A DNA stretch of 64,000 nucleotides from Candidatus Melainabacteria bacterium (lineage in GTDB: Bacteria > Cyanobacteriota > Vampirovibrionia > 2-02-FULL-35-15): contig JAHFBF010000001.1 in NCBI GenBank assembly GCA_023250195.1, forward strand, positions 406,661 through 470,660, written 5' to 3'. Shown one piece after another: positions 14,558 to 64,000 of the stretch. Positions within the stretch are counted from its first letter, which is position 1; every line of letters begins with the position of its first letter. The position numbers and the translations under genes were made by a program. The notes under the pieces are model-generated. The model was given only the letters and a program-made list of their open reading frames with translations. It made no database searches and had not been told where the DNA came from.

Positions 14558-14573
14558 GGATTAAATATTAACA

Positions 14574-20454: not shown

Positions 20455-20504
20455 AATTATACCTTCATAATACAGATCTGATAGAAGCGCGATAAATCGC
20501 GCTT

Positions 20505-20861
20505 CTACGCAGGCTTTTTCTTTGAATCCAATGACTGTATTGAATTAGCCAGGATAGTCAGACGATAATGGTTTTTATTTTCCTTGTCTTTCCACCTATC
20601 AGGTTTTAGTTCACCATGAACTACAATCATTCTGCCTTTAGTCAGATAATTTTCAGCAAACTCTGCCTGCTTACCCCAGGCTACAATACCATCTATAAAG
20701 TCTGCATCAATTTGCTTTTCACCCTCCTTATGTTTTTTTCTAATATTCCTGACAGCAAGGCTTAAATTTGCTTTGAAATATTTTTTATTTATACCTACCT
20801 CTTCGACCTCCGGATCTCTCGCTAATCTACCGATTAATGTAACTTGATTTTGAGCTGACAT
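20505..20861 (-). CDS. single-stranded DNA-binding protein-like OB-fold protein (no acidic C-terminal tail)
   Basis: NQVTLIGRLARDPEV...GIVAWGKQAEFAENYLTKGRMIVVHGELKPDRWKDKENKNHYRL follows the SSB OB-fold pattern; canonical DDDIPF-type tail absent. Confidence 0.6.
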   Translation of the reverse strand: MSAQNQVTLIGRLARDPEVEEVGINKKYFKANLSLAVRNIRKKHKEGEKQIDADFIDGIVAWGKQAEFAENYLTKGRMIVVHGELKPDRWKDKENKNHYRLTILANSIQSLDSKKKPA

Positions 20862-20922
20862 TTTGAACCTCCTTTTTAATATAAATCCAGTAGAGGCGAG
20901 ATAATCCCGCCTCTACAAAGAT

Positions 20923-21132
20923 TTATTGTTTTTTTGCTTTTTTATGTTTCTTTGTTTTCTTTGTTGACTTTTTTTTCTTTGGAGTTTCGTTTTCACTATC
21001 TTCCAAAGCTGCAGTTTGGACTTCCTGAACACCTGCGCTAAGCTGTTCTGAAGCTGTTTTTATCTCTTGTGCTTTTACAGAAGCATTAAGAAACAAAGAT
21101 ACAGCACAAAGTGCGATTATTGTTTTTTTCAT
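20923..21132 (-). CDS. small secreted Lys-rich protein
   Basis: Internal Met (MKKTIIALCAVSLFLNASVKA) gives a signal peptide; the ORF-track N-terminal extension to 21228 runs through inverted repeats and is probably not translated; C-terminus poly-Lys. Confidence 0.4.
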   Translation of the reverse strand: MKKTIIALCAVSLFLNASVKAQEIKTASEQLSAGVQEVQTAALEDSENETPKKKKSTKKTKKHKKAKKQ

Positions 21133-21337
21133 TTTCTTCTCCTTATTGTTTCTACCAGAAAAATCCCTACGAGATTTTCCCTTTCCCTTTCCGGCATGCA
21201 AGATATTCTTCCTCAGAACATCTTGCACTTATATTTTGTACATGAGAAAAATTTCTCATGTCCCGGCTCAGAAAAAAAATTATATTAAAAAAGAGGATTT
21301 GATTTCAATAGATGATCCTGTAAATTCTTTATAAATC

Positions 21338-22874: not shown

Positions 22875-24785
22875 TTATTTTGTTCTTGCTCTTCTATCTC
22901 TAGTTAATGCAAGATCTTTAGATAATATAGTTCTTTCCGTTGCAAGAACTACTACTGAATTTCCCAAATCTATCATTGAACCTGATAGGGTAAATTTAAC
23001 TGTAATAACCCCGTTTTTATTTACCGTTACCTGTTCATCTCCTTGACTTATGCCGCTTGGGAATACAGTAGCAACAATATCATTGGTGATACTGTTAGCA
23101 GTTTTGTTGTGCAGTCCTTTCCTTGCAGCAACTAAAGAACGACCTCTTAAGGTTATAGTAGCTTTGTTGCCATGATGTACATTCAAAGACAATCTTCTTA
23201 TTACAGTAGGGCTTACAAGAGGATTAAAGTTAATTATCTCAATAATTCCACTTAGTGAGAGTCCATTACTTAAATTAAATGAAAATACTGCATCGCCTGT
23301 ACTGACTGCATTCCCATCTGGTAAAAGCAGAGTAAGAATGTATTTGTTAGGTTCATTAGAAATACTCATTATTTCATACTGAAGATCATTGAATACATTT
23401 CCATTACTGGATGAAAGGCTTAAAGAGAGTATTTCTGTATCTATTAAGGGCAATGAAGACCTAATTTCAAAAGATGGGTTAGAACCAGGATAAGCAGTTC
23501 CAACTTTCCCAATAAACTCATCTGGAATTAATGGAAGTTCAACTGCATTTGGTAGTTTTGGAGTTCCTGTAATATCGATATCATATCCTCTTCCTGCTTC
23601 AAAGCCACCGGAGGAAGAACTAGAAGAGGAACTACTAGAAGAAGAGCCGGAAAATTGGTCTGTTCCTAAATTCCCTGAAGATGAAGTTCCTGGTACACAT
23701 TCCGGGAGATTCGAACAAATTTCTGGATTAAATTCACAGCAGCCAAATATACAGCAGTTGTTTCCGCACATTGTCCATTGACAGTCTGGAACGTTAGATA
23801 TTCCTCCTCCTCCTACAGGTACACAAACTGGGGCAGGATTGTTACAGAGTAGTGCTTCTTGATGACGAATAACTGTTCGAGTAGGTAAATTGTCTCCTAC
23901 TGTACAACAGGCAGGTGTATTCTCTGAACAAGATGGTGAACCTAAAGAAGGGCAAGCAGGAGTAGAACCAGTAGGACATGTTACTGCTCCATCTACACAA
24001 CTTATACCACCTGAAGAAGAACCTCCTGATGATGTAGAACTTGAAGTTGTTGATGATGTTGAGCTTGTTGAACCTGATGTTGAACTTGAAGTGCTTGATG
24101 TTGAGCTTGAAGTGCTTGATGTTGAGCTTGAAGTGCTTGATGTTGAGCTTGTTGATGATGATGTGCTAGAAGAACCATGATGATCATCGTCGTCATCATC
24201 ATGACCGCCTGTTGATGATGTACTACTTGATGTTGAGCTTGTTGATGATGATGTGCTAGAAGAACCATGATCATCATCGTCATCATCATGACCGCCTGTT
24301 GATGATGTACTGCTTGATGTTGAACTTGAAGTGCTTGATGTTGAGCTTGAAGTACTTGATGTTGATGAGTTAGATCCTGAAGTCGATGAGTTGGATCCTG
24401 ATGTTGATGAACTAGAACTTGATGCAGGATCACACTTAACCTTGTCATCACACATTGACATAGAATCACAACAATTTGGTTCTCCATCTATGCAAGATAA
24501 AGTATCCATACCACTACATGATGCTACTTCTCCACTAGTACAAAAAACATTCCCATTGGAACAAAATGCAGTTTCTTTATCTTTCTTTGTCTTTATTGAA
24601 TGTGAAGTTCGTGATATAGAAGTGTAATTTCTATTTCTACCATTTGAATATGCTTGTGCTGCAGAATAATCTTTTGTCTTGAATAGAGCCAGTGTTGGTA
24701 AATTAAGAATTAATATTAAAGTAAGACTAACTAAAAATTTAAAGGCCTTTAATTTGATGTTTTTATTTGATTCTTGATTTTGCAT
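22875..24785 (-). CDS. secreted mucin-like Ser/Thr-rich, Cys-rich repeat protein
   Basis: Start taken at the Met preceded by AAGGA (signal/anchor KAFKFLVSLTLILILNLPTLALF); long (SST/SSS)n tracts, repeated GGHDDDDDDHGSSSTSSS units, Cys-rich blocks at both ends. Confidence 0.7.
   Translation of the reverse strand: MQNQESNKNIKLKAFKFLVSLTLILILNLPTLALFKTKDYSAAQAYSNGRNRNYTSISRTSHSIKTKKDKETAFCSNGNVFCTSGEVASCSGMDTLSCIDGEPNCCDSMSMCDDKVKCDPASSSSSSTSGSNSSTSGSNSSTSSTSSSTSSTSSSTSSSTSSTGGHDDDDDDHGSSSTSSSTSSTSSSTSSTGGHDDDDDDHHGSSSTSSSTSSTSSTSSSTSSTSSSTSSTSSSTSGSTSSTSSTTSSSTSSGGSSSGGISCVDGAVTCPTGSTPACPSLGSPSCSENTPACCTVGDNLPTRTVIRHQEALLCNNPAPVCVPVGGGGISNVPDCQWTMCGNNCCIFGCCEFNPEICSNLPECVPGTSSSGNLGTDQFSGSSSSSSSSSSSSGGFEAGRGYDIDITGTPKLPNAVELPLIPDEFIGKVGTAYPGSNPSFEIRSSLPLIDTEILSLSLSSSNGNVFNDLQYEIMSISNEPNKYILTLLLPDGNAVSTGDAVFSFNLSNGLSLSGIIEIINFNPLVSPTVIRRLSLNVHHGNKATITLRGRSLVAARKGLHNKTANSITNDIVATVFPSGISQGDEQVTVNKNGVITVKFTLSGSMIDLGNSVVVLATERTILSKDLALTRDRRARTK
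24001..24420 (-). repeat. tandem coding repeats (Ser-tract and HD6H units)
   Basis: Repeated GATGTTGAGCTTGAAGTGCTT and CATGATCATCGTCGTCATCATCATGACCGCC blocks; the opposite-strand ORFs 23890..24180, 24002..24487 and 24331..24627 are artefacts. Confidence 0.8.
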
Positions 24786-24950
24786 TTTAATATCCTTAAT
24801 TTCCCTTGAAACTTCTAAAACTACTAGAAGTAAAATCATATGACACAGTTAATACAAAGTCAATAAATCCTAAAAGTTAATTTTAGATCTTAAGCATTAA
24901 TCTTAAACTCTTTATGTTTAGCTTTAGATATATCTATATAAGATTAAAAA

Positions 24951-24980
24951 TTTAGGGTGCACTGTTACATGCACCCTAAA
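24951..24980 (-). terminator. rho-independent terminator downstream of 25016..27964
   Basis: 11-bp stem TTTAGGGTGCA/TGCACCCTAAA with 8-nt loop, followed on the transcript by a U-run; near-identical copy at 28132..28157. Confidence 0.7.
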
Positions 24981-25015: not shown

Positions 25016-27964
25016 CTACTGCCCTGCAGGGAAGTCACAAATTACACGGAAGCCACGAGTACTCCCTGTAGCTGTAGTTTGATTTCTAAAGTCTGCTGTA
25101 ATAGGCGATGTAGCATCACTGGTTGAAGTATAATTTCCTCCACGAGTTATTGCATATTGAGCATCAGTACTATCCGTAAACAGTTTACCGCTATTCTTAC
25201 CACCATTTAAGTCAGCAGTAGCTCCAGATTGTGTTGGAAGACCTGATCCTTCAAAGTCTATGTCTACAGCAGCAGCACCACCTGCAATATCCTGAAAATT
25301 AAAGACACTGTTGTTTGTTGTAAATGGCAGTACTATTCCAGCTCCTGGATAGCCAGAATCAACTATAAAATCTGAACCACCAGACATAGAAGAATTTGTA
25401 ATCGTAAGGTCTCCCCATTCTTCTACATTACCAATCAAGTCATATACCTGCTTATCACCATCAAATGCACTATTTGAGTTAGTTACATCATCAGCTATTG
25501 CACTGGATGCAAATGTAGTACCATCAGTATTCTTAGTAGCTGAACCATCCAAAATATGTCCCCAGCTTTTAAAGCCAGTACCAGTTAAACATCTATCTCC
25601 AGTACCACTTTGATTTGGATCATCAGCACATTGGAATGAAGCACTATTTCTTAGATCTCTGTTTCCATCCCTGGTATTTCCTCTTTCATTCCAACCATTT
25701 GTAGCGGTTGCACCAAAGATGCTTTTTTGTTTTGCAAATCTGCCCAGTATATAAAGTGCTGTCCATTCCTTATTTCCAATAAGTTTACACGATCCTAAAG
25801 ATGAAATTTGGGCACTGGAAGCAGATGCGTTTGCTTTTGCAGTTGAGTGGCTTATGTTAGTCCAAGGTACTACATTTCTCTGACTGACAGGAATAGAAGA
25901 ACTGCCCTCTGCGGTAGCAGTAGCATCTGCTTTTGATGCTTCATATTTATTAATCCAGAAACCCCCAAAAACAATTCCATTAATAATAAATCTTGGTATT
26001 CTTACCATTCTTGTTGTACAAAGTGAAGATGGTGATACATCACATGAGCTTGTTGAGAAGGTCTTTTCATCTGAGTATGAATTCCAGCTAGAGGAAACTT
26101 CCTGAACTGTAGGAATATCATTTGCTCCTTGGCAGTCAGCCACTGTACATGACCCACTTACGTTTATATCTTCAGTAGCTGTATCACATGAACCATTGCC
26201 GTTTAAATCCCAGCAATTTAAACCATTAGTTCCATTGGTACCGTTAGTTCCGTTGGTTCCATTTGCTCCATTAGTCCCATTGGTTCCATTTGCTCCGTTG
26301 GTTCCATTAGTTCCATTACAGACATAATTTGTTGCTGTGACTTCACCGGAATCTAAAGTATTGTCATTATTTGAATCAAGCCCTGATTCTACTTTCTTGC
26401 CACCAGTAGAACAATTTGTTCCTGCTGATTCTGTAGTAATCTTTACCAAACTGTTTAAACCATTAGTTCCATTGGTACCGTTAGTTCCGTTGGTTCCATT
26501 TGCTCCATTAGTTCCGTTAGTTCCGTTAGTTCCATTGGTTCCATTACAGACATAATTTGTTGCTGTGACTTCACCGGAATCTAAAGTATTGTCATTATTT
26601 GAATCAAGCCCTGATTCTACTTTCTTGCCACCAGTAGAACAATTTGTTCCTGCTGATTCTGTAGTAATCTTTACCAAACTGTTTAAACCATTGGTTCCAT
26701 TGGTACCGTTAGTTCCATTGGCTCCGTTTGCTCCATTGCAGACAAAAGATGTTGAACTTACTTCACCAGAATCAAGCACACTATTTCCATTAGCATCAAG
26801 ACCAACTTCTATTTTTCTTCCACCTGTTGCACAATTTGCTCCGGCTGATTCTGTGGTTGATTTTGTAAGTGCATTATTTCCACCCATTCCATCACTACCA
26901 TTGCTTCCTGCATTTCCAGCAGTTCCAAGTGGAATAGTAAAAGTCAGGTTACAAAGAACCGGATCAAAAAACGCATCAGCCTTTGTCCCTGGTGCACCAT
27001 TATTTGCTGAGATCATTAATAATGCATTTAGATCATTACAGACACCCATACCATCCATGCCATTAATCCCATCCATTCCATCCATAATTACAACGGTAGG
27101 GATAGTTTCAGGAGACAAACTATTTGTTCCAAGGGTCTGATTATTTACAAATACTCCACCTACAATAGTTACTGTTGAGTTAAGAATCGGACTTGTAATA
27201 GTTATATCTCTAGATCCAACTGGAGCATCACTTTTCGGAGTAGCTAACACATCCAAAGTTGAATCATCTAAAGCTATAGTCTCTCTTACAGTAATATCAT
27301 TATTGCTGAATGAAACTTCTGTAAATGCATCTAATCCTTTACCTTTAATTGTAAGTTTATTTTCTACCCCGGCCTTTAGATCCCGTGTTATTGAATCAAG
27401 CCTAAACTCAGGTAGAGTAAACACAATCGTGTCAGCAGAATCATTGCCATCAACAGTAGCTCTTAAAGTATATTGGCCTGGTTTTAACCCTTTTACAAAA
27501 ATTTTGAATATTTTAAAGTCCAGGGCCTGAACTATTGAGCTTTGATTTTGAGTTTTATTTAAATTAAACGTAACTGATTGATTTTTTGTAACTATTTTAT
27601 TTTTACCTGTTTTTATTAAGTTTTGATCTTCTCTAAGCTCTGATATTCTAAATATCTTTAATCCAGTCATTAAAAGTGTGGCATTGTCAATTCCAAGACC
27701 TGTTCCCTGTGCACCAATAACTTCTACTTTTACAACCATTGCATCAGGCTTAAGTAACAGATCCAGGGATACTCTTTGATCAAGTTCTATATTATTCCTG
27801 TTATATCTGAATGCCGGCAATAAATTAGCTGATATTCTCTCTTGAGAAATTGTACTTCTGGCTTTTACTGCATAAATATTAACTGCATAAGCAGCACCGC
27901 TTTGATTCAGCAGAAGTACAGCTATTAATACAACCTTACATAGAAGACTTAACTTATTTTTCAT
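25016..27964 (-). CDS. giant secreted protein: conserved N-domain, Gly-Thr-Asn triplet tracts, Asp-rich repeat modules, C-terminal FGE-sulfatase (SUMF1)-like domain
   Basis: Signal peptide; N-terminal 330 aa nearly identical to 28187..32443; (GTN)n tracts; about 45-aa modules ...TESAGTNCSTGGKKVESGLDSNNDNTLDSGEVTATNYVCNG; C-terminal FGE-type motifs MVRIPRF...WINKYEAS, NKEWTALYILG, QVYDLIGNVEEW, TRGGNY...GFRVICD. Confidence 0.85.
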   Translation of the reverse strand: MKNKLSLLCKVVLIAVLLLNQSGAAYAVNIYAVKARSTISQERISANLLPAFRYNRNNIELDQRVSLDLLLKPDAMVVKVEVIGAQGTGLGIDNATLLMTGLKIFRISELREDQNLIKTGKNKIVTKNQSVTFNLNKTQNQSSIVQALDFKIFKIFVKGLKPGQYTLRATVDGNDSADTIVFTLPEFRLDSITRDLKAGVENKLTIKGKGLDAFTEVSFSNNDITVRETIALDDSTLDVLATPKSDAPVGSRDITITSPILNSTVTIVGGVFVNNQTLGTNSLSPETIPTVVIMDGMDGINGMDGMGVCNDLNALLMISANNGAPGTKADAFFDPVLCNLTFTIPLGTAGNAGSNGSDGMGGNNALTKSTTESAGANCATGGRKIEVGLDANGNSVLDSGEVSSTSFVCNGANGANGTNGTNGTNGLNSLVKITTESAGTNCSTGGKKVESGLDSNNDNTLDSGEVTATNYVCNGTNGTNGTNGTNGANGTNGTNGTNGTNGLNSLVKITTESAGTNCSTGGKKVESGLDSNNDNTLDSGEVTATNYVCNGTNGTNGANGTNGTNGANGTNGTNGTNGTNGLNCWDLNGNGSCDTATEDINVSGSCTVADCQGANDIPTVQEVSSSWNSYSDEKTFSTSSCDVSPSSLCTTRMVRIPRFIINGIVFGGFWINKYEASKADATATAEGSSSIPVSQRNVVPWTNISHSTAKANASASSAQISSLGSCKLIGNKEWTALYILGRFAKQKSIFGATATNGWNERGNTRDGNRDLRNSASFQCADDPNQSGTGDRCLTGTGFKSWGHILDGSATKNTDGTTFASSAIADDVTNSNSAFDGDKQVYDLIGNVEEWGDLTITNSSMSGGSDFIVDSGYPGAGIVLPFTTNNSVFNFQDIAGGAAAVDIDFEGSGLPTQSGATADLNGGKNSGKLFTDSTDAQYAITRGGNYTSTSDATSPITADFRNQTTATGSTRGFRVICDFPAGQ
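26221..26317 (-). repeat. hexanucleotide (GTTCCR/TTGGTN) tract encoding (Gly-Thr-Asn)n
   Basis: CCATTAGTTCCATTGGTACCGTTAGTTCCGTTGGTTCC...; further tracts at 26458..26548 and 26688..26740; the opposite strand reads PLVPLVP (artefact ORFs 26337..26555, 26565..27140). Confidence 0.85.
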
Positions 27965-28131
27965 TTTTGCAGCTCCCCAATTTTCTTAACTGGATAACTC
28001 TTCTCAGATCAAGACTAAGAATAAGTTAAATCCAAGTACAAGCCCTTTTGTGATCCATGGCAACCCTAAGATCATGTTGCACTGGACATCATTCACTTGA
28101 TATAAAGACAAAGTTATTTATTGCAAAAAAA

Positions 28132-28157
28132 TAGGGTGCACTGTTACATGCACCCTA
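28132..28157 (-). terminator. rho-independent terminator downstream of 28187..32443
   Basis: TAGGGTGCA-CTGTTACA-TGCACCCTA hairpin, duplicate of 24951..24980. Confidence 0.7.
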
Positions 28158-28186
28158 AAAGTTTTTCACGAAGAGGCTCTTACTCT

Positions 28187-31100
28187 TTAGAAGTCACAGA
28201 TTACACGGAATCCACGACGCTCGTCAGTAGTAGTAGTCACATCATTACCATCAATTATAAGTGGTGAAGGAGCACTGGCACCATCATTACAAGCACCACC
28301 ACGAGTTATACCGTATTGTGCATCTGTTGTAGTTGTAGAAAGAGTTCCTGAATTCTTCCCGCCATTTGTATCATTCAAGCCACCATTTGCAGTAGCAGGA
28401 AGTCCAAGTCCACTAAAAGTAGATGATGTTGATATATCTATAGAGTTAAAGATCGCTCCATCTGTCGTAAATGGAAGCACTGATCCTGCTCCTGTATAGC
28501 CAGTATCAACTACAAAGTCTGAGCCAGACATGGTAGAAGAATTTGTAAAAGTATAGTCAATCCATTCTTTTACATTTCCAACAAGATCATAGACCTGTTT
28601 ATCACCATCCAAAGTATCAGCACCTGATCCACCATTGTCATCTTTAACAGCATCTGCTGTACTACCAAGTGAAGTACCTGTCGCATTTATAGTAGCTGAA
28701 CCATCTAAAAGATGTCCCCAGCTCTTATAACCTGTTCCAGTTAAGCAGACATCGCCAGTACCACTTTGATCTGGATCATCTTCACATACAGATGAACCAC
28801 TATCTCTGCCATCTCTGTTTCCATTTCTGGTATTCCCTCTTTCATTCCAACCGTTTGTAGCAGTTGAACCAAAGAGTCCTGTACTTTTTGCAACTTTACC
28901 AAGAATATAAAGAGCAGTCCACTCTTTCATTCCTATAAGTCTGCATGAACCAATACCAGTAATTTGTCTATTTAAACTAGATGCATTTGTCTTTGCAGTA
29001 GCCTGACTTATGTTTGTCCATGGCTCTACTCTACGTTGGCTTACAGGTACACTAGAAGTTCCTTGATCTGTTGCTGTAGCATTTGCTCTAGAAGCTTCAT
29101 ACTTGTCTATCCAGAAACCACCATACTCTACACCTTTATAAGTAAACTTTGGTATTTTTACCATTCTAGTCATACTGCTCATGTCATTTGTAGTGTAGTT
29201 TACTTCATCAGATAAAGTATTCCAGTTATTCACCAAACCGATAATTGCTGCTTCCTGGCAATCATCAGCTGTATATAAACCGTCATTATTTACATCTTCA
29301 GCTGCATCATTTACACCATCTTCATCTACATCCCAGCAGTTAATTCCATTAGTTCCATTTGAACCATTGGTTCCGTTTGTACCATTAATTCCATTACAGA
29401 CATAGCTGGTAGAAGCGATTTCACCACCAGTTAGCATATTGTCATTATTTGCATCAATACCGGCTTCCACTTTCTGACCGCCAGCTGTACAGTTTGCACC
29501 TGAACCTTCAGATGTTACAACAACTAAGCTAGTTGAGCCATTGGTTCCGTTAGTACCATTAGTTCCATCAGTTCCAGCACAATCAGCAACGTCTACTACA
29601 GTATCACCATTTAGATCTTCAGTTGCTACATCACCTACTCCATTATTATTTAAATCCCAGCAGGCTTGTCCGTTGGTTCCATTAGTACCGTTAGTTCCAT
29701 TAGTTCCGTTGGTTCCGTTAGTACCATTGGTTCCGTTTGTACCATTAGTTCCATCAGTTCCAGCACAATCAGCAACGTCTACTACAGTATCACCATTTAG
29801 ATCTTCAGTTGCTACATCACCTACTCCATTATTATTTAAATCCCAGCAGGCTTGTCCATTGGTTCCGTTGGTTCCGTTAGTTCCATTGGTTCCGTTAGTT
29901 CCGTTAGTTCCGTTGGTTCCGTTAGTTCCATTAGTTCCGTTGGTTCCGTTTGTACCATTGGCTCCATTACAGACATAGTTTGTAGAAGTAATTTCACCAC
30001 CAGCTAAAGAACCATTATTATTTGTATCCAGTCCAGATTCTACTTTTTTCCCACCATTAGCACAATTTGCACCAGCTGATTCTGTAGTAACCTTTACCAA
30101 GCTGTTCAAACCGTTGGTTCCATTTGTACCATTAGTTCCGTTGGTTCCGTTTGTACCATTGGCTCCATTGCAGACATAGTTTGTAGAAGTAATTTCACCA
30201 CCAGCTAAAGAACCATTGCCATTTGTATCTATTCCAGATTCTACTTTCTTTCCACCATTAGCACAATTTGCACCGGCTGATTCTGTAGTAATCTTTACCA
30301 AACTGTTCAAGCCATTGGTTCCGTTAGTTCCGTTAGTACCATTAGTTCCATTTGTACCGTTGCATACATAAGTAGTTGATGTAATTTCTCCTCCACTTAA
30401 AGAACCATTGCCATTTGTATCAACCCCACTCTGTATCTTCTTTCCACCATTAGCACAGTTTCCACCTGGGTTTTCATTTGAGGATGTTACAAGTGTTTGT
30501 AAACCATTGCAAACATATGATGTAGCATCAACTTCTCCCGAGTCAAGAGTACTATCACCATCATCATCTACTCCTACCTGAATTTTTCTTCCACCGTTTG
30601 CACAGTTTCCACCTGGGTTTTCATTTGAGGATGTAATTAAACTGTTTGATCCATTACATGCATAAGTCGTAGAGTCTATTTCACCTGCATCAAGTGTGTT
30701 ATCTCCATCATCATCTACTCCTACGCGAATCTTTCTACCACCGCTTGGACAGTTTGCTCCAGATGGTTCGCTTGAAGATGTAATTAAACTGTTTGATCCG
30801 TTACATGCATAGGTTGTAGAGTCTATTTCACCTGCATCAAGTGTGTTATCTCCATCATCATCTACTCCTACGCGAATCTTTCTACCACCGCTTGGACAGT
30901 TTGCTCCAGATGGTTCGCTTGAAGATGTAATTAAACTGTTTGATCCGTTACATGCATAAGTCGTAGACTCAACTTCTCCAAGATCAAGAACATTGTCTCC
31001 GTCATCATCTACTCCTGCCTGAAATTTTCTACCACCACTTGGACAGTTTGCTCCGGATGGTTCGCTTGAGGATGTAATTAAACTGTTTGATCCATTACAT

Positions 31101-32443
31101 GCATAGGTCGTTGATGTAATTTCTCCACTATCAAGAACACCACTTCCATCAGTGTCAGTACCAACTTCAAACTTTTGCCCACCGCTTGGACAGTTTGCTC
31201 CGGATGGTTCGCTTGATGTATTAGTTAAACTATTTTCACCTGCAGGAATACCAAGAACTAAAGTACACAAAATAGAATTAAAAGTAGTAGTAGCTGCTAA
31301 ACCTGGCGCAAGGGTAACATTTGAAATTACAAGTGTTGCATTCATATCATCACAAACACCCATTCCATCAGATCCATTACTTCCATTAATTCCATTAAAA
31401 CCTACAGGAATGCTGAAAGTAAGGTTACAAAGAACTGGATCAAAAAACACATCAGACATTGAACCTGGGATTCCATTGTTTGTAGTAATCATTAATAAAG
31501 CATTCATATCATCACAAACACCCATTCCATCCACGCCATTCATACCATCCATAATTACAACAGATGGATTAATGTTTGCATTATCAGGAGATAAACCATT
31601 TGTTCCAAGGGTCGGATTATTTACAAGTACTCCATTTACTATAGTGACCGTATTGCCAGTAAGCGGACTTGTAATAGTTACATCTCTATAACCATTTGGG
31701 GCATTACTTGTTGAAGTTGCCAATACCTTTAAAGTAGAATCATCTAAAGCTATGGTATCTCTTACAGTAATATCACCATTGCTGAATGAAACTGCTGTTA
31801 ATGCATCCAATCCTTTTCCTAGAAGTGTAAGTGTAGTTTCAACACCGGGATTTATAACTGATGGGGTTACTGCATCCAGTCTAAAGTTTGGCCTTGTAAA
31901 CACAATCGTGTCAGTAGAATCATTATCATCAATAGTAGCTCTTACAGTATATTGGCCAGGAAGACGTCCTTTTACAAATACTTTGAATATTTTAAAGTCC
32001 AGAGCCTGAACTATTAAGCTTTGATTTTGAGTTTTATTTAAATTAAAAGTAACTGATTGATTTTTTGTAACTATTTTGTTCTTGCCTGTTTTTGTCAACT
32101 TTTGATCTTCTCTAAGCTCTGATGTTCTAAATATCTTTAATCCACCCATTAAAAGTGTGGAATTATCAATTCCAAGGCCTGTTCCCTGTGCACCAATAAC
32201 TTCTACTCTTACAACCATTGCATCAGGCTTAAGTAACAGATCCAGGGGTATTCTTTGATCAAGTTCTATATTATTCCTGTCATATCTGAATGCCGGCAAT
32301 AAATTAGCTGATACTCTCTCTTGAGAGATTGTAGTTTTGGTTTTAACTGCATAAATATTAACTGCATAAGCAGCACCGGTTTGATTCAGCAGAAGTGCAG
32401 CTATTAACACAACCCTACATAGAAAGCTTAATTTATTTTTCAT
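28187..32443 (-). CDS. giant secreted protein, paralog of 25016..27964 (expanded repeat modules, C-terminal FGE-sulfatase-like domain)
   Basis: 1418 aa; same signal peptide and N-domain; at least 7 tandem 45-aa modules SLITSSSEPSGANCPSGGRKxxVGVDDDGDNTLDAGEIDSTTYACNGSN (three nearly identical); (GTN)n tracts up to 13 triplets; duplicated CWDLNNNGVGDVATEDLNGDTVVDVADC units; C-terminal YDLVGNVKEW / GFRVICDF. Confidence 0.85.
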   Translation of the reverse strand: MKNKLSFLCRVVLIAALLLNQTGAAYAVNIYAVKTKTTISQERVSANLLPAFRYDRNNIELDQRIPLDLLLKPDAMVVRVEVIGAQGTGLGIDNSTLLMGGLKIFRTSELREDQKLTKTGKNKIVTKNQSVTFNLNKTQNQSLIVQALDFKIFKVFVKGRLPGQYTVRATIDDNDSTDTIVFTRPNFRLDAVTPSVINPGVETTLTLLGKGLDALTAVSFSNGDITVRDTIALDDSTLKVLATSTSNAPNGYRDVTITSPLTGNTVTIVNGVLVNNPTLGTNGLSPDNANINPSVVIMDGMNGVDGMGVCDDMNALLMITTNNGIPGSMSDVFFDPVLCNLTFSIPVGFNGINGSNGSDGMGVCDDMNATLVISNVTLAPGLAATTTFNSILCTLVLGIPAGENSLTNTSSEPSGANCPSGGQKFEVGTDTDGSGVLDSGEITSTTYACNGSNSLITSSSEPSGANCPSGGRKFQAGVDDDGDNVLDLGEVESTTYACNGSNSLITSSSEPSGANCPSGGRKIRVGVDDDGDNTLDAGEIDSTTYACNGSNSLITSSSEPSGANCPSGGRKIRVGVDDDGDNTLDAGEIDSTTYACNGSNSLITSSNENPGGNCANGGRKIQVGVDDDGDSTLDSGEVDATSYVCNGLQTLVTSSNENPGGNCANGGKKIQSGVDTNGNGSLSGGEITSTTYVCNGTNGTNGTNGTNGTNGLNSLVKITTESAGANCANGGKKVESGIDTNGNGSLAGGEITSTNYVCNGANGTNGTNGTNGTNGTNGLNSLVKVTTESAGANCANGGKKVESGLDTNNNGSLAGGEITSTNYVCNGANGTNGTNGTNGTNGTNGTNGTNGTNGTNGTNGTNGQACWDLNNNGVGDVATEDLNGDTVVDVADCAGTDGTNGTNGTNGTNGTNGTNGTNGTNGTNGQACWDLNNNGVGDVATEDLNGDTVVDVADCAGTDGTNGTNGTNGSTSLVVVTSEGSGANCTAGGQKVEAGIDANNDNMLTGGEIASTSYVCNGINGTNGTNGSNGTNGINCWDVDEDGVNDAAEDVNNDGLYTADDCQEAAIIGLVNNWNTLSDEVNYTTNDMSSMTRMVKIPKFTYKGVEYGGFWIDKYEASRANATATDQGTSSVPVSQRRVEPWTNISQATAKTNASSLNRQITGIGSCRLIGMKEWTALYILGKVAKSTGLFGSTATNGWNERGNTRNGNRDGRDSGSSVCEDDPDQSGTGDVCLTGTGYKSWGHLLDGSATINATGTSLGSTADAVKDDNGGSGADTLDGDKQVYDLVGNVKEWIDYTFTNSSTMSGSDFVVDTGYTGAGSVLPFTTDGAIFNSIDISTSSTFSGLGLPATANGGLNDTNGGKNSGTLSTTTTDAQYGITRGGACNDGASAPSPLIIDGNDVTTTTDERRGFRVICDF
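29670..29970 (-). repeat. hexanucleotide tracts encoding (Gly-Thr-Asn)n plus duplicated about 190-bp unit
   Basis: GTTGGTTCCATTAGTACCGTTAGTTCC... tracts at about 29670..29760 and 29858..29970 flanking duplicated ...CAGCACAATCAGCAACGTCTACTACAGTATCACC... units; the opposite-strand ORF 29541..29978 is an artefact. Confidence 0.85.
30470..31210 (-). repeat. tandem about 135-bp coding repeats (45-aa Asp-rich modules)
   Basis: Repeated ...TCCACCTGGGTTTTCATTTGAGGATGT... and ...GGACAGTTTGCTCC(A/G)GATGGTTCGCTTGA(A/G)GATGTAATTAAACTGTTTGATCC... blocks; boundaries approximate. Confidence 0.75.
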
Positions 32444-38257: not shown

Positions 38258-39601
38258 TTATTTGAACAATTCCTGAAATCCTTTTGTATTAGTTATTTCG
38301 TCTTCTAGTTCAGGAGCAAAGACAAGACATGTTTTGACAATGTTTTCCTGACTTAATGCCTTTACTAATCCTGATACTTCTGAAAGCTCTTTTACGACTC
38401 CATTATTCTGCTTTATAAAAATTGCTTTACCGGTTTTATCAGTAACCTGATATGGTTCATATGGCTTTGCAGCTGATTGTTCAATCCCTAAATAAAAAGT
38501 TGGATCAACGTCTTTATTTTTTGAAATTGGTTTTAATTTTTCCAGAACCTCACTGATTTTATTTTTGTTAACTTCCTGACGAAACTCAAGTGACTTAAAT
38601 AACTTACGCATTGTAAAGCGACCTGATAAATCTTTCAAGATTTTGTCACCTGTTAAATCTTCTGAAAAACTTTGAATGGCTGACATAAGATAAAAATCAT
38701 CAACCCCTAAATATGGACTCAAATCAATTTTTTCTAATTGCTTTTTGTCAATATTCAACCACTCATATAAAACATGAGGAATATTTTTTGGTTTAACTTC
38801 CTTTAATCTCTCAATAATTTTTCTAAGCAAAAAGTCACATGCAAGATTTTTTTTGTGCTGGTAAACCTGCTGGTACATGGAGTATCTGGCTTGCAAATAA
38901 TGAATTACTGCATCCAACCCTACATTTTCATTTATAACCAGCAGAGGCGAAGTTCCCTCACCCCTGACTTTATCAACTTCAAGAGAAGCAATTATTCTAT
39001 CTGACCCCGTTAAACCATAAGGCACCCCGATATAATATGAATCTCTATGAAGATAATCCAGCCTATCACAATCCACATAACTCGAAATAATCTGACTTAA
39101 GTAGAGGCGGGGTAATCCAGCCTCTACTTTACCATTCATTATTTCAATAACATCATCAAGAAAGTTCTTGTCAAATTCTACAAAGAGTTTACGAATCTCT
39201 GAATCACCTTCGATAATTTTCTTTGTCCATTGCTCATGACTAAAACCTAAAAGCTTCTCAGAAGTATGGCTGAACGGACCATGTCCAATATCATGTATCA
39301 AAGCAGAAACCAATATTCTGGCTTTATATTTATTTATTTCTTCAAAGTTATCTGCCAGGTGAGTTATCATTTTCTTTGCAACAAACATTGCACCTATACT
39401 GTGACCAAAGCGGGTATGTTCTGCCCCATGAAAAGTAAACCAGCCAAGCCCCATCTGCCTTATCCTTCTCAATCTCTGAAATTCTTTTGTATCAATTATA
39501 TTTGCAAGCAAAAAGTCTATAGGATCATTCAAATTAAGCTTAATTGGCCCATGTATCGGATCTAAAAATGTTCTCTGTTTGTAAGTATTTTTTGTTATCA
39601 T
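38258..39601 (-). CDS. HD-domain metal-dependent phosphohydrolase (dNTP triphosphohydrolase-like)
   Basis: HD motif region FGHSIGAMFVAKK...LIHDIGHGPFSHTSE; carries an in-frame GC-rich palindrome at 39101..39127. Confidence 0.75.
   Translation of the reverse strand: MITKNTYKQRTFLDPIHGPIKLNLNDPIDFLLANIIDTKEFQRLRRIRQMGLGWFTFHGAEHTRFGHSIGAMFVAKKMITHLADNFEEINKYKARILVSALIHDIGHGPFSHTSEKLLGFSHEQWTKKIIEGDSEIRKLFVEFDKNFLDDVIEIMNGKVEAGLPRLYLSQIISSYVDCDRLDYLHRDSYYIGVPYGLTGSDRIIASLEVDKVRGEGTSPLLVINENVGLDAVIHYLQARYSMYQQVYQHKKNLACDFLLRKIIERLKEVKPKNIPHVLYEWLNIDKKQLEKIDLSPYLGVDDFYLMSAIQSFSEDLTGDKILKDLSGRFTMRKLFKSLEFRQEVNKNKISEVLEKLKPISKNKDVDPTFYLGIEQSAAKPYEPYQVTDKTGKAIFIKQNNGVVKELSEVSGLVKALSQENIVKTCLVFAPELEDEITNTKGFQELFK
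39101..39127. repeat. 27-bp GC-rich palindrome GTAGAGGCGGGGTAATCCAGCCTCTAC inside the HD-domain CDS
   Basis: Translated in-frame as ...VEAGLPRLY...; near-identical intergenic copy GTAGAGGCGAGATAATCCCGCCTCTAC at 20890..20916. Confidence 0.8.
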
Positions 39602-42883: not shown

Positions 42884-43014
42884 AGTAAGATTATATTATG
42901 TCAGCTGCATTTACGTTCTCACAGTTTATAGGCTTTGTCCGATTTATTCGGCAAAGCCGGTCAAATGTAATTACAAAGCCACGGGAAGTGCAAACTTGTT
43001 TTGCACTATAAAAA

Positions 43015-45347: not shown

Positions 45348-45444
45348 ACTTAGCTTCTATGTAATGCTTCAATCGATCCTCACAAGATCGGATTTGCCGG
45401 ATAAACCAGACAAATCCTTTAAATACTAGAGCATTGTTTGTCAT
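45292..45444 (-). CDS. candidate RiPP precursor peptide (leader plus EAKCGEGQCGGDGK core)
   Basis: 50-codon ORF from ATG 45444 (alternative TTG 45474), 20 nt downstream of the CoA-transferase stop and overlapping the MNIO start; C-terminal core EAKCGEGQCG matches the repeat of 9841..10242; no Sec signal peptide. Confidence 0.5.
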   Translation of the reverse strand: MTNNALVFKGFVWFIRQIRSCEDRLKHYIEAKCGEGQCGGDGKNISKRKK

Positions 45445-48070: not shown

Positions 48071-48154
48071 ATGTCATTCCCCGGCTTGACCGGGGAATCC
48101 AGAAACTCACACTAATAACTATCTCCTGGATACCCGCTTCCGCGGGTATGACAT
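48071..48154. repeat. compound palindromic element (ATGTCATTCC-hairpin-GGAATCC ... GGATACC-hairpin-GGTATGACAT)
   Basis: Two GC-rich hairpins (CCCCGG-CTTGA-CCGGGG; CCCGC-TTCC-GCGGG) bounded by inverted ATGTCAT/ATGACAT; 19 nt upstream of the flavin-reductase start. Confidence 0.75.
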
Positions 48155-55495: not shown

Positions 55496-57004
55496 ATGAA
55501 AGAAACTAAAAAAAACAATAGATTGTTTTGGACTTTTGTTATTGCTTTTTTGATTATTATTTTAATTCCTTTCTGTTTTAAAGATAGATATATCTGCGAA
55601 AATTTGAAACTGAAAGAAGCCATAAGCTGCTTATCTTATAGCGATTTAGTAAACCTTACAAAACAACCAATACCAAATTCACCACTTTACTTTAAACTTC
55701 AAAAACAGTTAAATACTCCTTATATATTTAATAAAACTTTCCTTACCATGTTCTCAGGGCGCGATAAATCGCGCCCATACAATTTTTTACGTCTTGCACA
55801 TTGGAACATACAAAGAGGGTTTAATGTAACTGCAATTAAAACCATCCTAAGCAATAAATACCGGTACTACAATAGTTATAAAAATAATCTGGATAGTTCT
55901 ACACAAAGTGATTTAAAAAAAGAACTGGAAGATATCTCCAGAAGCGATATTATCTCCTTAAATGAAGTCGATGTTGGAATGCCAAGAACCGACTATAAAA
56001 ATATTGCATCTGAAATAGCAATGGCACTTAATTATAATTATGTTTTTGCTACTGAGTTTATAGAATTAAATTCAATAATTTACAAACAAAGGATTAATCC
56101 TGCTCGTTACCTGGGTTTACATGGAAATGCAATTATTTCCAGATACCCAATTAAATCTGCTCGTATAATCAGGCTTCCTGAATACTATAAGTGGTACGAA
56201 GCTGAGATTCAAAAGAAATCTATGCTAGAAAGTGTCCGTCGAGTTGGTGCAAAAGGAGCATTTAGTGAAAATATTACAAAAAATGAGGTACGGCGTGGGG
56301 GGCGAAATGCCCTTATTGCAGATATAGAACTGCCAAATAAAGAAATTATTACAGTGGTTTCAACACATCTTGAAGACAGATGCTTCCCTGACAAACGTTT
56401 TCAGCAATTTGAATATTTACTTTCAAACTTAAGAACTTTAAGGAGATCTGTTGTACTTGCCGGTGATTTTAATACCACTACTACAGACTCAGCCCCTGCA
56501 TCATTGAAGAAAGAACTTGTAAAAAGGATTAGAGATCCTCACTATCTTACCCGTCAGGCAGTTTTAGCAATAATTCCTATAGGTGGCATACCAGGAGTAG
56601 TCAATCTTGCTTCTTTTGGCTTAAGCAAATTAATTCAATACAAAGATCCTACTGCACCAAGTATTCCAATATTTCTTCCAAACCAGGAGAAAAAATTTTT
56701 TAACTATTTAAAAGATTTCCGTTTTACTGATGGTGAAGTCTTTGATATAAGTGGAGATAGAAGTTCAAATGGTAAAAGAGGATTGCTTGCAAGCTCAAAC
56801 GAAAGACAACTAAAAGGTTTCGAAAGTACATTTAAATTCATAGAACCGCGAGTTATTGCATATTATAAGCTTGACTGGTTTTTTGTAAAACCAAAAGGAA
56901 ACAGGTTCAAACCCTTTAACGGTCAAACATTACAACTGATTAACCATGTATATCCTGGAAGAGTTTCTGATCATGAGCCTATTATTGTAGATTTAAATTT
57001 ATAG
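55496..57004 (+). CDS. endonuclease/exonuclease/phosphatase (EEP) family protein
   Basis: EEP motifs LRLAHWNIQRG, GLHGNAIISRYPI, VVSTHLEDR, VLAGDFNT, SDHEPIIVDL; N-terminal TM anchor; contains in-frame palindrome at 55757..55776. Confidence 0.8.
   Translation: MKETKKNNRLFWTFVIAFLIIILIPFCFKDRYICENLKLKEAISCLSYSDLVNLTKQPIPNSPLYFKLQKQLNTPYIFNKTFLTMFSGRDKSRPYNFLRLAHWNIQRGFNVTAIKTILSNKYRYYNSYKNNLDSSTQSDLKKELEDISRSDIISLNEVDVGMPRTDYKNIASEIAMALNYNYVFATEFIELNSIIYKQRINPARYLGLHGNAIISRYPIKSARIIRLPEYYKWYEAEIQKKSMLESVRRVGAKGAFSENITKNEVRRGGRNALIADIELPNKEIITVVSTHLEDRCFPDKRFQQFEYLLSNLRTLRRSVVLAGDFNTTTTDSAPASLKKELVKRIRDPHYLTRQAVLAIIPIGGIPGVVNLASFGLSKLIQYKDPTAPSIPIFLPNQEKKFFNYLKDFRFTDGEVFDISGDRSSNGKRGLLASSNERQLKGFESTFKFIEPRVIAYYKLDWFFVKPKGNRFKPFNGQTLQLINHVYPGRVSDHEPIIVDLNL
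55757..55776. repeat. GC-rich palindrome GGGCGCGATAAATCGCGCCC inside the EEP-family CDS
   Basis: Translated as ...SGRDKSRP...; shares the 16-bp core GCGCGATAAATCGCGC with the intergenic palindrome at 20482..20507. Confidence 0.8.
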
Positions 57005-60125: not shown

Positions 60126-61502
60126 ATGCCGGAAACCCTTACAAAACAAATCAGCAAAGCAAAAGAAATTGCAAGTTATGTTTTATCACAAAAGAAAGAA
60201 TCACTTTCAAAAGAAGTTATTCATGAAGTAAAAAGAAGAATTATTGATAGCCTTGCCTGTGCAATAGGGGCATATGATTCAAAGGTCTGTAAAATTGTTT
60301 TAAAGGCATGTTCAAAAATAAAAGGAAAATATAAAGCTCCCTTATTTGGAAAAGGAAAAGAAGTTTTTTATGAGGAAGCTGCTTTTGCAAATGGGGCACT
60401 TGTTAGATATCTGGATTTTAATGATACTTATTTATCTTTAGAGCCTGCTCATCCATCAGATAATATTGCACCTCTATTAGCATGTGCACAAGCATATGGA
60501 AAAAGCGGTCTTGATTTAATCCTGGCTATTGCAATTGCTTATGAAATACAATGTCAGCTCTGTGATGGTGCATCACTTCGTGCTAAAGGAATTGATCATG
60601 TTACTTACGGAGCATTTTCCACTGCATGCGGTGCAACTGTATTAATGGATTTAGATGAAGAACAGTTGGAAAATGCACTTGGTATTGCCGGTGTTTGTAA
60701 CATTGCCACACGTCAGACAAGAGTCGGCGAAATGTCCATGTGGAAAGCATGTGCATTTGCTAATGCTGCAAGACAGGGACTATTTGCAGCAAGATTAGCA
60801 AAAGAAGGAATGACAGGACCTGCTCCAATATTTGAAGGAACAAAAGGGTTTGAAACCTTAGTTTCAGGACCAATGAATTTAAAACTTCCAAATATTGGCG
60901 AACCACCAAAGAAAATTCTAGAAACCTATATTAAACCTTATCCTGTAGAATATCATGCACAGAGTGCAGTTGAAGCTGCTATAAAATTAAACAAAGAGGG
61001 TTTAAAAATTGATCAGGTTCAGGAAATGACTGTTTATACTCATGGCGCTTCTTACCAAATAATTGGTTCAGAACCTGAGAAGTGGAGACCTACATCAAAA
61101 GAAACCGCTGATCACAGCCTCCCTTACTGCACAGCTATTGCACTTCGGGATGGAAACGTAACCGATGAAAGTTTTCATAAGAAAAACTACAAAGACTCTA
61201 ATTTGCTAAAGTTCTTAAAGAAAATAAAAGTAGTTGAAGATCAAAGATATACTTCTGATTATCCAAAAAGTTTTGGAAACAGATTAGAGATAAATTTATT
61301 TGATGGAAAGAAAATTATAAAAGAAGTTTTACATCCATTTGGTCACCCAAGAAATCCTATGAAGGATGAGGATGTATTTAGTAAGTGGAGAACACTGGCT
61401 GGTCCGCACCTTGGACAAAATAATATTGAAGAGCAGATTGAGAAAGTAATGATGCTTGAGCATCAAAAAGGACTCTCCACATTAATGCCAGAAGTCAGTT
61501 AA
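60126..61502 (+). CDS. prpD: MmgE/PrpD-family protein (2-methylcitrate dehydratase-like)
   Basis: RRIIDSLACAIGAYDS, HPSDNIAPLLACAQAYGKSGLDLILAIAIAYEIQCQL and downstream PrpD-type segments; methylisocitrate lyase gene lies downstream. Confidence 0.75.
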   Translation: MPETLTKQISKAKEIASYVLSQKKESLSKEVIHEVKRRIIDSLACAIGAYDSKVCKIVLKACSKIKGKYKAPLFGKGKEVFYEEAAFANGALVRYLDFNDTYLSLEPAHPSDNIAPLLACAQAYGKSGLDLILAIAIAYEIQCQLCDGASLRAKGIDHVTYGAFSTACGATVLMDLDEEQLENALGIAGVCNIATRQTRVGEMSMWKACAFANAARQGLFAARLAKEGMTGPAPIFEGTKGFETLVSGPMNLKLPNIGEPPKKILETYIKPYPVEYHAQSAVEAAIKLNKEGLKIDQVQEMTVYTHGASYQIIGSEPEKWRPTSKETADHSLPYCTAIALRDGNVTDESFHKKNYKDSNLLKFLKKIKVVEDQRYTSDYPKSFGNRLEINLFDGKKIIKEVLHPFGHPRNPMKDEDVFSKWRTLAGPHLGQNNIEEQIEKVMMLEHQKGLSTLMPEVS

Positions 61503-61654
61503 ATCCAGGTAAACAAATATTTTTTTGATCTCTTTTTTATCATTTTTTCTAATTTTAGAAAATAAAAATATTTTAATCTTAAGTCCTATAAAAATTTCCG
61601 GGGGGCCTTTATATAAGTGCAAAGGTTAATCAAGAAAAAAATCAAGGAGATAAT

Positions 61655-62055: not shown

Positions 62056-62367
62056 ATGGCAAAGAAAGAATCACTAAATAAAAACTGGACCGAAATTGGT
62101 GTGGTAAATGGCCCTGATCTTCAAAATAGGATCGTTATAACTCCTATTGTAACTTGGTTAAAACAACATATTGATAGCTTCAAAGTATTTATAAACTCTA
62201 GTGGTAATGTACTTTTAAAACCAATGATTAGTCTTCCGCTAGAAGAAGCATGGCCTTATCAAGATCCCAAGATATTATCCAACGTTCTAAAAGGTATCGA
62301 GGAAGCAAAAGCAGGAAAAGCCAAGCCATTTGATTTAAAAAAATTAAAAGAATTAGATGATGTTTAA
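62056..62367 (+). CDS. putative type II antitoxin (AbrB/MazE-like swapped-hairpin)
   Basis: RIVITPIVTWLKQHIDSFKVFINSSGNVLLKP resembles the SpoVT/AbrB fold; stop overlaps the start of the downstream toxin-like gene. Confidence 0.45.
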   Translation: MAKKESLNKNWTEIGVVNGPDLQNRIVITPIVTWLKQHIDSFKVFINSSGNVLLKPMISLPLEEAWPYQDPKILSNVLKGIEEAKAGKAKPFDLKKLKELDDV

Positions 62368-62653
62368 TATCAAATTAACTCCTTTAGCTTTGAAACAATT
62401 GGAGGAGATAAAAAAACGAGAGCCAAGGCAAGGATTACTAAAGCAAATCATAAAGACAATCAGATTTTTAAGTGAAAATCCAAGACATCCTTCTTTGCAT
62501 ACTCATAAAAATCAAAGGTTGAGCAATCTACATGGTTTAGATATTTTTCAAGTATATGCACAGAACTACACTTCAGGTGCTTACCGTATCTTCTTTACTT
62601 ATTCTGCTAAAGATGAAATTACTATTACTTCTATAGAAGCACATCCAGATTAG
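62357..62653 (+). CDS. putative type II toxin (RelE/ParE-superfamily-like)
   Basis: 98 aa basic protein; C-terminal ...SGAYRIFFTYSAKDEITITSIEAHPD resembles the RelE/ParE C-terminal pattern; 11-nt overlap with the upstream small gene. Confidence 0.45.
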   Translation: MMFNIKLTPLALKQLEEIKKREPRQGLLKQIIKTIRFLSENPRHPSLHTHKNQRLSNLHGLDIFQVYAQNYTSGAYRIFFTYSAKDEITITSIEAHPD

Positions 62654-62806
62654 ATATTTATAAATAACAAATATCATAGACAAAAAAGCCTATGTAAAAA
62701 CTCTCCCCATTAATGCCAGAAGTCGGTTAAATCCAGGTAAACAAATATTTTTTTAGCTTGATATAAGTGCAAGGTTAATCAAGAAAAAAATCAAGGAGAT
62801 AAAATT

Positions 62807-63072: not shown

Positions 63073-63148
63073 ATGTCATTCCCGCGAAAGCGGGAATCCA
63101 GTATCGGTAGCAGTCTTGCCTGGATTCCGGGTCAAGCCCGGAATGACA
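63073..63148. repeat. compound palindromic element (TGTCATTCC-hairpin-GGAATCC ... GGATTCC-hairpin-GGAATGACA)
   Basis: Hairpins CCCGCGAAAGCGGG and CCGGGTCAAGCCCGG bounded by inverted TGTCAT/ATGACA; 45 nt upstream of the prpB start; same family as 48071..48154. Confidence 0.75.
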
Positions 63149-63193: not shown

Positions 63194-64000
63194 ATGAAAC
63201 CTTTCCACCAGCTTTTAAAAGAACAAAAAACTCTTGTTATTCCTGGAGTATTTAATGCAGCATCTGCTCTACTGGCAAAAAACGCTGGATTTGAGGCATT
63301 GTATTTATCTGGTTCTGGCATTGCCACAGGATGTTTTGGTGTTCCTGATCTCGGGATTACAACGTTAGAAAATGTCTGCGAAGAGACACGAAGAATTACA
63401 AACGTAAAGGCGTTGCATGCAACGTCTCTTCTGGTAGATGCCGATACCGGTTTTGGCAATGAAGCCGATGCGGTAAAACAATTAGAAAAATCCGGCGCAG
63501 CAGGCATCCATTTAGAAGATCAGGTTTTTCCGAAACGCTGTGGTCACAGGCCAGGCAAAGAAGTAATTTCCCCTGAAGAGATGGTTTTAAAAATTCAAAA
63601 TGCAATAAAAGCAAGAACAAATTCAGATTTTTTTATAATTGCAAGAGTAGATTCAAGAAACGTTATAGGATTTGACGATGCCATTGAAAGAGCAAAAAAA
63701 TATCAAGATGCAGGGGCAGATGCAATATTTGCAGAAGCGCTTGAAAGTAAGGACGAGTATAAAAAGTTTGTTGATACTTTAAAGATTCCTGTATTAGCTA
63801 ATATGACTGAATTTGGCAAGACTCCTTACCTTTCAGTCTATGAGTTTGAGTCAGTAGGAGTACGTATGGTCATTTTCCCTTTAACTGCATTCAGACGAAT
63901 GATGAAAGCTACAGAGGAAGTGTATCGTATTATCAAAAAGGAAGGAACCCAGAAGCCAATACTAAACAGCATGCAAAGCAGGGATGAACTTTACCGACTT
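63194..64000 (+). CDS. prpB: 2-methylisocitrate lyase (ICL/PEP-mutase superfamily), 3'-partial
   Basis: Not in the ORF track because it runs off the window. ATG at 63194, open to 64000; MKPFHQLLKEQKTLVIPGVFNAASALLAKNAGFEALYLSGSG...VDADTGFG...GIHLEDQVFPKRCGHRPGKEV...ARVDS contains the KRCGH active-site motif. Confidence 0.85.
   Translation, partial: MKPFHQLLKEQKTLVIPGVFNAASALLAKNAGFEALYLSGSGIATGCFGVPDLGITTLENVCEETRRITNVKALHATSLLVDADTGFGNEADAVKQLEKSGAAGIHLEDQVFPKRCGHRPGKEVISPEEMVLKIQNAIKARTNSDFFIIARVDSRNVIGFDDAIERAKKYQDAGADAIFAEALESKDEYKKFVDTLKIPVLANMTEFGKTPYLSVYEFESVGVRMVIFPLTAFRRMMKATEEVYRIIKKEGTQKPILNSMQSRDELYRL

Follow-up and report, generated by a model that had tools for sequence, protein, structure and literature searches.

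The 64-kb stretch of DNA analyzed here (hereafter the window, with positions counted from its first nucleotide) is part of contig JAHFBF010000001.1 of a 35% GC Candidatus Melainabacteria genome, and is itself ~35% GC. The assignment to Candidatus Melainabacteria is backed by named protein homologs of the open reading frames (ORFs) in the window. Two of its genes are associated with a short, GC-rich palindrome. The first, ssb (20505-20861, minus strand), encodes a protein of 118 aa without an acidic tail (Pfam SSB, 2.1e-23), and the palindrome lying between it and a 98-aa ORF (20158-20454), on the ssb gene strand, is designated site 1. The second is an endonuclease/exonuclease/phosphatase (EEP) family gene (55496-57004, plus strand; Pfam PF03372), which hosts site 2. 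The 16-mer shared by these sites, GCGCGATAAATCGCGC, occurs on the plus strand at 20487-20502 and 55759-55774, in exactly two copies in the window; no third copy was found there, even allowing two mismatches.

An earlier note on this DNA, made from the sequence alone, had reported an identical 16-bp core at 20482..20507 and inside 55496..57004. Both copies were located exactly, and in each case the 16-mer is extended on both sides into a longer hairpin with perfect pairing. At site 1, the arms TAGAAGCGCGAT/ATCGCGCTTCTA (20482-20507) make a stem of 11-12 bp with a 4-nt loop and a folding energy of -22.1 kcal/mol (z=-4.1). At site 2, GGGCGCGA-TAAA-TCGCGCCC (55757-55776) makes a stem of 8 bp with a 4-nt loop and a folding energy of -16.6 kcal/mol (z=-3.8). 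The bases flanking the core are unlike between the two sites, yet complementary within each. Rfam and tRNA scans returned a single tRNA-Ala for the window; neither site matched a known RNA family.

A chance origin, which the earlier note had considered unlikely in AT-rich DNA, does not hold. Markov simulations of the window contained a mean of ~5 repeated 16-mers, while those with ≥60% GC numbered just 0.03 per window, a figure that excludes any demand for hairpins or for a common flanking tag at both copies. None of the shuffled sequences contained GCGCGATAAATCGCGC. Because GC-rich repeated 16-mers are expected so rarely, the repeat is not due to chance. The two copies also share a tag at equal offset on the same strand, with site 1 reading 16-mer+TT+CTAC and site 2 reading 16-mer+CC+ATAC. 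On the minus strand, site 1 (20481-20508) is GTAG-AAGCGCGA-TTTA-TCGCGCTT-CTAT, and site 2 (55757-55780) is GTAT-GGGCGCGA-TTTA-TCGCGCCC.

Repetitive extragenic palindromes (REPs) are GC-rich stem-loop repeats of 20-40 bp whose spread is thought to be due to REP-associated tyrosine (RAYT) transposases, which are IS200-like. Sites 1 and 2 are both probably copies of a REP of the GTAG-tagged kind (a probability of roughly 0.8). In this reading, the 16-mer they share makes up the loop and inner stem of a sub-type that consists, on the minus strand, of GTAG, NN GCGCGA, TTTA and TCGCGC NN in succession.

The tagged palindrome in unrelated genomes and in relatives

A scan of a genome collection for exact GCGCGATAAATCGCGC yielded at least 120 loci with 129 occurrences in unrelated bacteria, with no Melainabacteria among the 80 loci listed. 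In the 120 loci compared, NNCTAC directly follows the 16-mer in 65 of 129 occurrences (chance ~0.4%), and GG+16-mer+CCCTAC is found in 39 of 129; the latter reads GTAG-GGGCGCGA-TTTA-TCGCGCCC on the other strand. For the motif count that the earlier note had proposed as a check, the outcome favors its reading: the motif recurs far above chance, with a diagnostic flanking tag. The exact tagged 24-mer, GGGCGCGATAAATCGCGCCCCTAC, is spread over many phyla (L014 to L120, unrelated genomes), and site 2 is this same 24-mer with one change, a synonymous CCC>CCA that converts CTAC to ATAC. By sequence comparison, the 16-mer with these flanks matches the GTAG plus stem-loop REP format tabulated previously (Nunvar et al. 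2010, PMC2817692; Di Nocera, De Gregorio & Rocco 2013, PMC3733652).

Inverted doublets of GCGCGATAAATCGCGC, 40-60 bp apart, occur in several of the unrelated loci (L026, L042, L046, L051, L053 and L069). The REPIN/RAYT system (Bertels & Rainey 2011, PMC3116915) concerns the same repeat class, and the identical 16-mer is thus seen elsewhere as inverted doublets; in contrast, the window has no doublets of the family and no RAYT was found in the sequence examined. In one further locus, L049, two tagged copies at 406-421 and 4690-4705 are inverted, have identical flanks and are 4.3 kb apart, which gives them the look of a composite element.

A hairpin survey of the window showed site 1 to be akin to further hairpins that start with GTAG. 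Contigs of related genomes (L121 and L124-L130), obtained via EEP and SSB orthologs, carry additional GTAG units. Twelve GTAG...CTAC palindromes of 26-29 nt from the window and these relatives were aligned, with 96.5% of cells paired and compensatory (double) changes at 6 of 12 pairs. A covariance model, R1, was built from these 12 units; since they were hand-picked from the hairpin scan and the calibration was shortened, the E-values given here are rough. Site 1 was outside the training set and scored 29.6 bits (E=3e-5), which places it in a family of ~27-nt GTAG...CTAC palindromes.

Three siblings on the minus strand score higher than site 1. The copy at 14578-14604, GTAGAGACGCGGTAACTGTGTCTCTAC (R1 37.4 bits), lies in an extended stem (14570-14612), and its TAG is the stop codon of a GerE-family ORF (14601-14894). 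Its ortholog in L130 (1021-1048) has a different inner stem and supplies a stop codon too. The copy at 20890-20916, GTAGAGGCGGGATTATCTCGCCTCTAC (37.1 bits), is located between a small ORF (20923-21228) and ssb, has a G.U pair on the gene (minus) strand only and has an orthologous copy in L130. The third, at 39101-39127 (35.8 bits), is within an HD-domain gene (38258-39601). Weaker matches occur at 14088-14116 (minus strand; 22.7 bits, E=0.003), within a phosphoglucomutase-family gene (13112-14557), and at 63404-63431 (plus strand; 16 bits, E=0.19), within a methylisocitrate-lyase-like ORF. In total, 5-7 copies are present in the 64-kb window and ~20 in the 174 kb of window and relatives; no family copies were found in the 10 kb past the window's left edge. 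A palindrome in the PrpD gene of L121 (14453-14479) was tried and dropped, as it has 9 pairs, 2 mismatches, a score of 14.8 bits and mostly native sequence.

Sub-types with identical inner cores are found again at non-orthologous sites. The core GACGTTGCATGCAACGTC of the 63404-63431 copy is seen again at such a site in L126. Two intermediates are an L129 unit with a site-1-like core, GTAGAGAACGCGATTAATCGCGTCTCTTC, located 4 nt past a stop codon, and a site-2-like intergenic unit in L125, GTAGGGGCAGGATAAATCCTGCCCTCTAAC. The earlier note had treated the shared palindrome as a family of its own ("family B"); the repeat is real, but it is a sub-type of the GTAG REP family that includes the three siblings rather than a separate family.

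Several features agree with those of GTAG-tagged REPs. Both sites are GC-rich stem-loops of 20-30 nt with a terminal GTAG tag (GTAT at site 2), sub-types differ by complementary stem changes and G.U pairs fall on the transcribed strand. Copies lie just 3' of ORFs, where the tag may give a TAG stop, and some are intragenic and in frame; a 3' location, G.U pairs on the transcribed strand, intragenic copies and tags that supply TAG stop codons have all been described for GTAG REPs (Di Nocera, De Gregorio & Rocco 2013, PMC3733652). The lineage copies are unlike the usual elements in that most are tagged at both ends (GTAG...CTAC), so that the tag contributes to a 12-bp stem, and in that they are singletons instead of dimers, with about half of those seen being intragenic. 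The AT-rich Melainabacteria host is a further difference. GTAG REPs are known from Cyanobacteria, Chloroflexi and other deep phyla (PMC3733652; PMC2817692), and the searched literature held no paper linking Melainabacteria with REPs. GTAG-tagged REPs are thus a known kind of element, and Melainabacteria, the non-photosynthetic sister group of Cyanobacteria, are a new host lineage for it in that literature, one in which GC-rich units are conspicuous against an AT-rich genome.

The cyanobacterial repeat HIP1, GCGATCGC, is a GC-rich palindromic 8-mer without a loop that occurs in coding and non-coding DNA. The site core has a HIP1-like trait in GCGAT..ATCGC, and HIP1 itself has 0 matches in the window.

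Sites 1 and 2 in their host genes

At site 1, the first part of the stem doubles as the ssb stop codon. On the minus strand the sequence is ...CCT GCG TAG AAG CGC GAT TTA TCG CGC TTC TAT CAG..., with GTAG at 20508-20505 and its TAG, at 20507-20505, ending the ssb reading frame; 26 nt separate the hairpin from the start of ORF 20158-20454. A stop codon is likewise taken from the tag at 14578-14604 and at L130 1021-1048, and the other intergenic copies are 4-47 nt past a stop codon. In an independent sample, L131, the region is 100% identical across 923 bp, with the same ssb protein and no polymorphism relative to the window, and site 1 is therefore not an assembly artefact.

The earlier note had called site 1 terminator-like. 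Its position as a 3' hairpin stood, and a strong, GC-rich hairpin right after a stop codon is what a Rho-independent terminator would offer; in the relatives L129 and L130, ssb is followed by hairpins of an ordinary terminator-like kind. However, the stem of site 1 is followed on the gene strand by UAUCAGAUCUG with no U-tract, a terminator scan of the window did not list site 1 among its calls, and the family to which it belongs also occurs within genes, with a conserved tag. A reading in which site 1 is no more than an intrinsic terminator for ssb, and site 2 an unrelated coding palindrome, would leave unexplained why site 1 is identical to site 2 in its core, carries the GTAG tag and belongs to the family (E=3e-5), and we give it very little weight. 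For annotation, these observations caution against labelling such hairpins terminators, and they account for TAG stops within hairpins.

As a REP copy, site 1 would form its hairpin in the ssb transcript, where it would most likely act as a 3' stem-loop. It may serve as a barrier to 3' exonucleases, stabilising ssb mRNA, and it may be a partial terminator between ssb and ORF 20158-20454. REPs near stop codons reportedly stall translation, and a hairpin that starts at the stop codon could possibly hinder translation termination here.

Site 2 lies 260 nt inside the EEP gene and is read in frame as G88-R-D-K-S-R-P-Y95 of the protein, which agrees with the SGRDKSRP reading given in the earlier note. 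In an alignment of 34 EEP orthologs, it falls in a hypervariable linker (~residues 78-97) bounded by the conserved segments QLNTPYI.N and LR.A.WNIERGFN. The peptide FSGRDKS(C/R)PY is common to the window protein and its sister ortholog P0002 (77% identity) only, together with the DNA palindrome. P0012 has a degraded form, TGWDKSRPY, and is not grouped with P0001/P0002 in the neighbor-joining tree, which is star-like; the remaining orthologs at 72-77% identity lack the peptide. Since it sits in a variable linker and is present in the sister ortholog only, the peptide is not a conserved protein feature. The ortholog alignment that the earlier note had suggested thus found SGRDKSRP to be unconserved and to be held, with its DNA palindrome, by the nearest ortholog alone.

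The tag of site 2 is decayed to ATAC (55777-55780; GTAT on the minus strand), whereas the orthologous copies, GGGCGTGATAAATCGTGCCCCTAC in L121 and ...GATAAATCACGCCCCTAC in L124, both read CCCCTAC and so hold CTAC/GTAG. In L121, the closest ortholog, the stem has two changes, both C>T, with G.U pairs preserved on the sense strand. Because of the one tag change in the window and the two stem changes in L121, site 2 is read as decaying slowly, and most likely as a passenger that the gene tolerates and not a selected structure. Site 2 would be an older copy; it would have inserted, or been kept, in frame within a linker that tolerates changes in length.

Another possibility on which the placement of the two sites bears is that a dimeric regulator binds GCGCGA-N4-TCGCGC at both loci as a palindromic operator. 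In its favor, the half-sites are perfectly inverted and the two cores do not differ. Neither site is placed as in a promoter, though, one being at a stop codon and the other well inside a gene; site 1 is absent from the relatives at ssb (L128-L130) and the sister genome has a degraded site 2; and the stem is extended by differing flank bases, as is expected of a hairpin and not of a binding site. Of the explanations weighed, we regard an operator as the least probable.

Side observations were made at the ssb locus. The gene 3' of ssb varies, being the 98-aa coiled-coil ORF 20158-20454 in the window, a bAvd/23S_rRNA_IVP-family gene (10415-10771) with GTATTGCGT-like repeats on its flanks in L128 and, in L129, an ORF6N gene (6669-7181). 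The position just downstream of ssb is a variable hotspot. Upstream of ssb in L129, at ~6150-6250, a long inverted repeat, TGTCATCCTGAGC...GCTCAGAATGACA, takes the place of the REP seen in the window and L130, and may be a different small repeat element.

In-frame copies and the question of mobility

Copies within genes share the in-frame reading GTA GxG ..., which translates to V-x-[AT]-G-x-P-x-x-[YF]. In the HD-domain gene the window copy encodes VEAGLPRLY, and no copy is present in L128, P0121 or P0122, which are 4-5 residues shorter. The BPL gene has in-frame copies at two sites each in L121 and L124 and at one site in L125, with none in the window, L126 or L127. The weaker match in the phosphoglucomutase-family gene encodes VKAGFKPAS, in the segment linking domains I and II. 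That in the methylisocitrate-lyase-like (PrpB-like) gene encodes VKALHATSL; orthologous copies are present in the window and L126, adding 3 aa relative to E. coli PrpB. Sibling copies are present in some relatives and absent from others at orthologous positions of the BPL and HD genes, which suggests gain or loss; their boundaries are not clean. This in-frame set (EEP, HD, BPL, phosphoglucomutase-family and PrpB-like) could be useful for the study of REP entry into, and persistence in, coding sequence, and it accounts for GC-rich peptides such as GRDKSRPY and VEAGLPRLY in annotated proteins.

Classical Rickettsia palindromic elements (RPEs) are ~100-150 bp long. The copies described here resemble RPEs as in-frame palindromic repeats that add a peptide to apparently functional proteins, and are unlike the RPE-1 type (~100-150 bp) in that the unit is 24-28 nt (8-9 codons). 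RPE-1 has been termed a longer palindromic insertion, and the short, intragenic RPE-4 and RPE-6 of R. conorii have been equated with CGTC-tagged, not GTAG-tagged, REPs (PMC3733652).

It is also conceivable that the hairpins arose in place, by template-switch mutation or by selection for RNA structure, with the 16-nt identity coincidental and site 2 derived from native linker codons (ancestral D-K-x-P-Y). The linkers of distant EEP orthologs do end in DKPY-like residues, [DNS]K[PS][YF], resembling the DK..PY of site 2, and the intragenic palindromes add just 2-6 codons, with ends that run into native codons (LY for the HD gene, F for BPL). Weighed against this are the expectation of ~0.03 GC-rich repeated 16-mers per window, the tag shared at equal offset, the dozens of unrelated genomes that contain the tagged 24-mer, and the identical inner cores at non-orthologous sites, all of which make an origin in place improbable, if slightly less so than a lone ssb terminator.

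Several observations weigh against reading both sites as REP copies. R1 gave site 2 a local score of 14.7 bits (E=0.45) for the hairpin only and failed to place it in the family, and the membership of site 2 therefore rests on its tag and on the comparison with other genomes. The site 2 hairpin of L121 is weak (-9.4 kcal/mol, z=-0.7), which counts against a selected structure. With respect to an insertion at site 2, the linkers of the EEP proteins P0003 and P0009 match it in length and lack the palindrome. At site 1, the sequence downstream of ssb in L128-L130 is non-homologous, with a different gene in each, and does not show an insertion. The net gain at intragenic copies is 2 to 6 codons instead of 9, which does not demonstrate simple insertion. 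The copy number in the host genome is based on ~74 kb (5-7 copies). Lastly, neither the window nor the ~110 kb of related loci examined yielded a RAYT gene.

Further searches for a mobilising enzyme gave a similar picture. No PF01797-like ORF was present among the 30 window ORFs scanned or in the related-locus gene tables, the motif HUH...Y..NP had its sole match in the unrelated locus L032, and clustering of the ORFs near GCGCGATAAATCGCGC in the at least 120 unrelated loci gave no recurrent neighbor protein. By analogy with other REPs, the element would be spread by a RAYT-type transposase. The earlier note had proposed a small mobile palindromic element; a repeat dispersed in coding and non-coding DNA is what was found, and we infer the mobility of sites 1 and 2 themselves from the class of the element and from the presence or absence of siblings.

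A variant of the REP interpretation differs in how the copies spread. The lineage REPs, which are double-tagged, singleton and in frame, could spread by patch-replacement or template switching and not by simple RAYT cut-and-paste, or could be subject to cross-phylum exchange of REP/RAYT systems. The 27-nt unit appears to overwrite a few native codons (net +2 to +6) at loop or linker positions of housekeeping genes, sometimes repeatedly in one gene (BPL), and exchange was considered because the identical 24-mer occurs in many phyla. We hold this variant to be unlikely, albeit less so than the origin in place, terminator and operator explanations.

Other repeats in the window

Further repeats were noted in the window. 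A near-identical hairpin, TTTAGGGTGCACTGTTACATGCACCCTAAA, with 31 nt shared, is intergenic at 24951-24980 and 28132-28157, each time downstream of a large, repeat-rich minus-strand ORF (25016-27964 and 28187-32443, respectively). The pair may reflect duplication of a terminator, or may form a further repeat family. Extensive tandem and dispersed repeats at 24050-24340 and 26200-31520 are within minus-strand ORFs 22875-24839, 25016-27964 and 28187-32443, which appear to encode repeat-domain surface proteins. Two related intergenic hairpins, GGCTTTGTCCGATTTATTCGGCAAAGCC at 42931-42958 and GGATTTGTCTGGTTTATCCGGCAAATCC at 45390-45417 (minus strand), have compensatory differences and flank a thioredoxin/DsbD/MbnB-like gene cluster.

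GC hairpins of the ATTCC...GGAAT type occur in pairs ~50 bp apart. One pair (48076-48098 and 48130-48149) is in a divergent promoter region (Flavin_Reduct/Rce1-like) and the other (63078-63097 and 63124-63144) is just upstream of the PrpB-like ORF. They are probably the "family A" of the earlier note and resemble paired operator sites more than REPs. In the region separating PrpD from PrpB, direct repeats at 61480-61653 and 62708-62802, with two blocks of ~30-35 nt, surround the small overlapping ORFs 62056-62367 and 62357-62653, where L125 has HicA/HicB-like genes. This arrangement resembles the insertion of a small two-gene cassette whose junction was duplicated.

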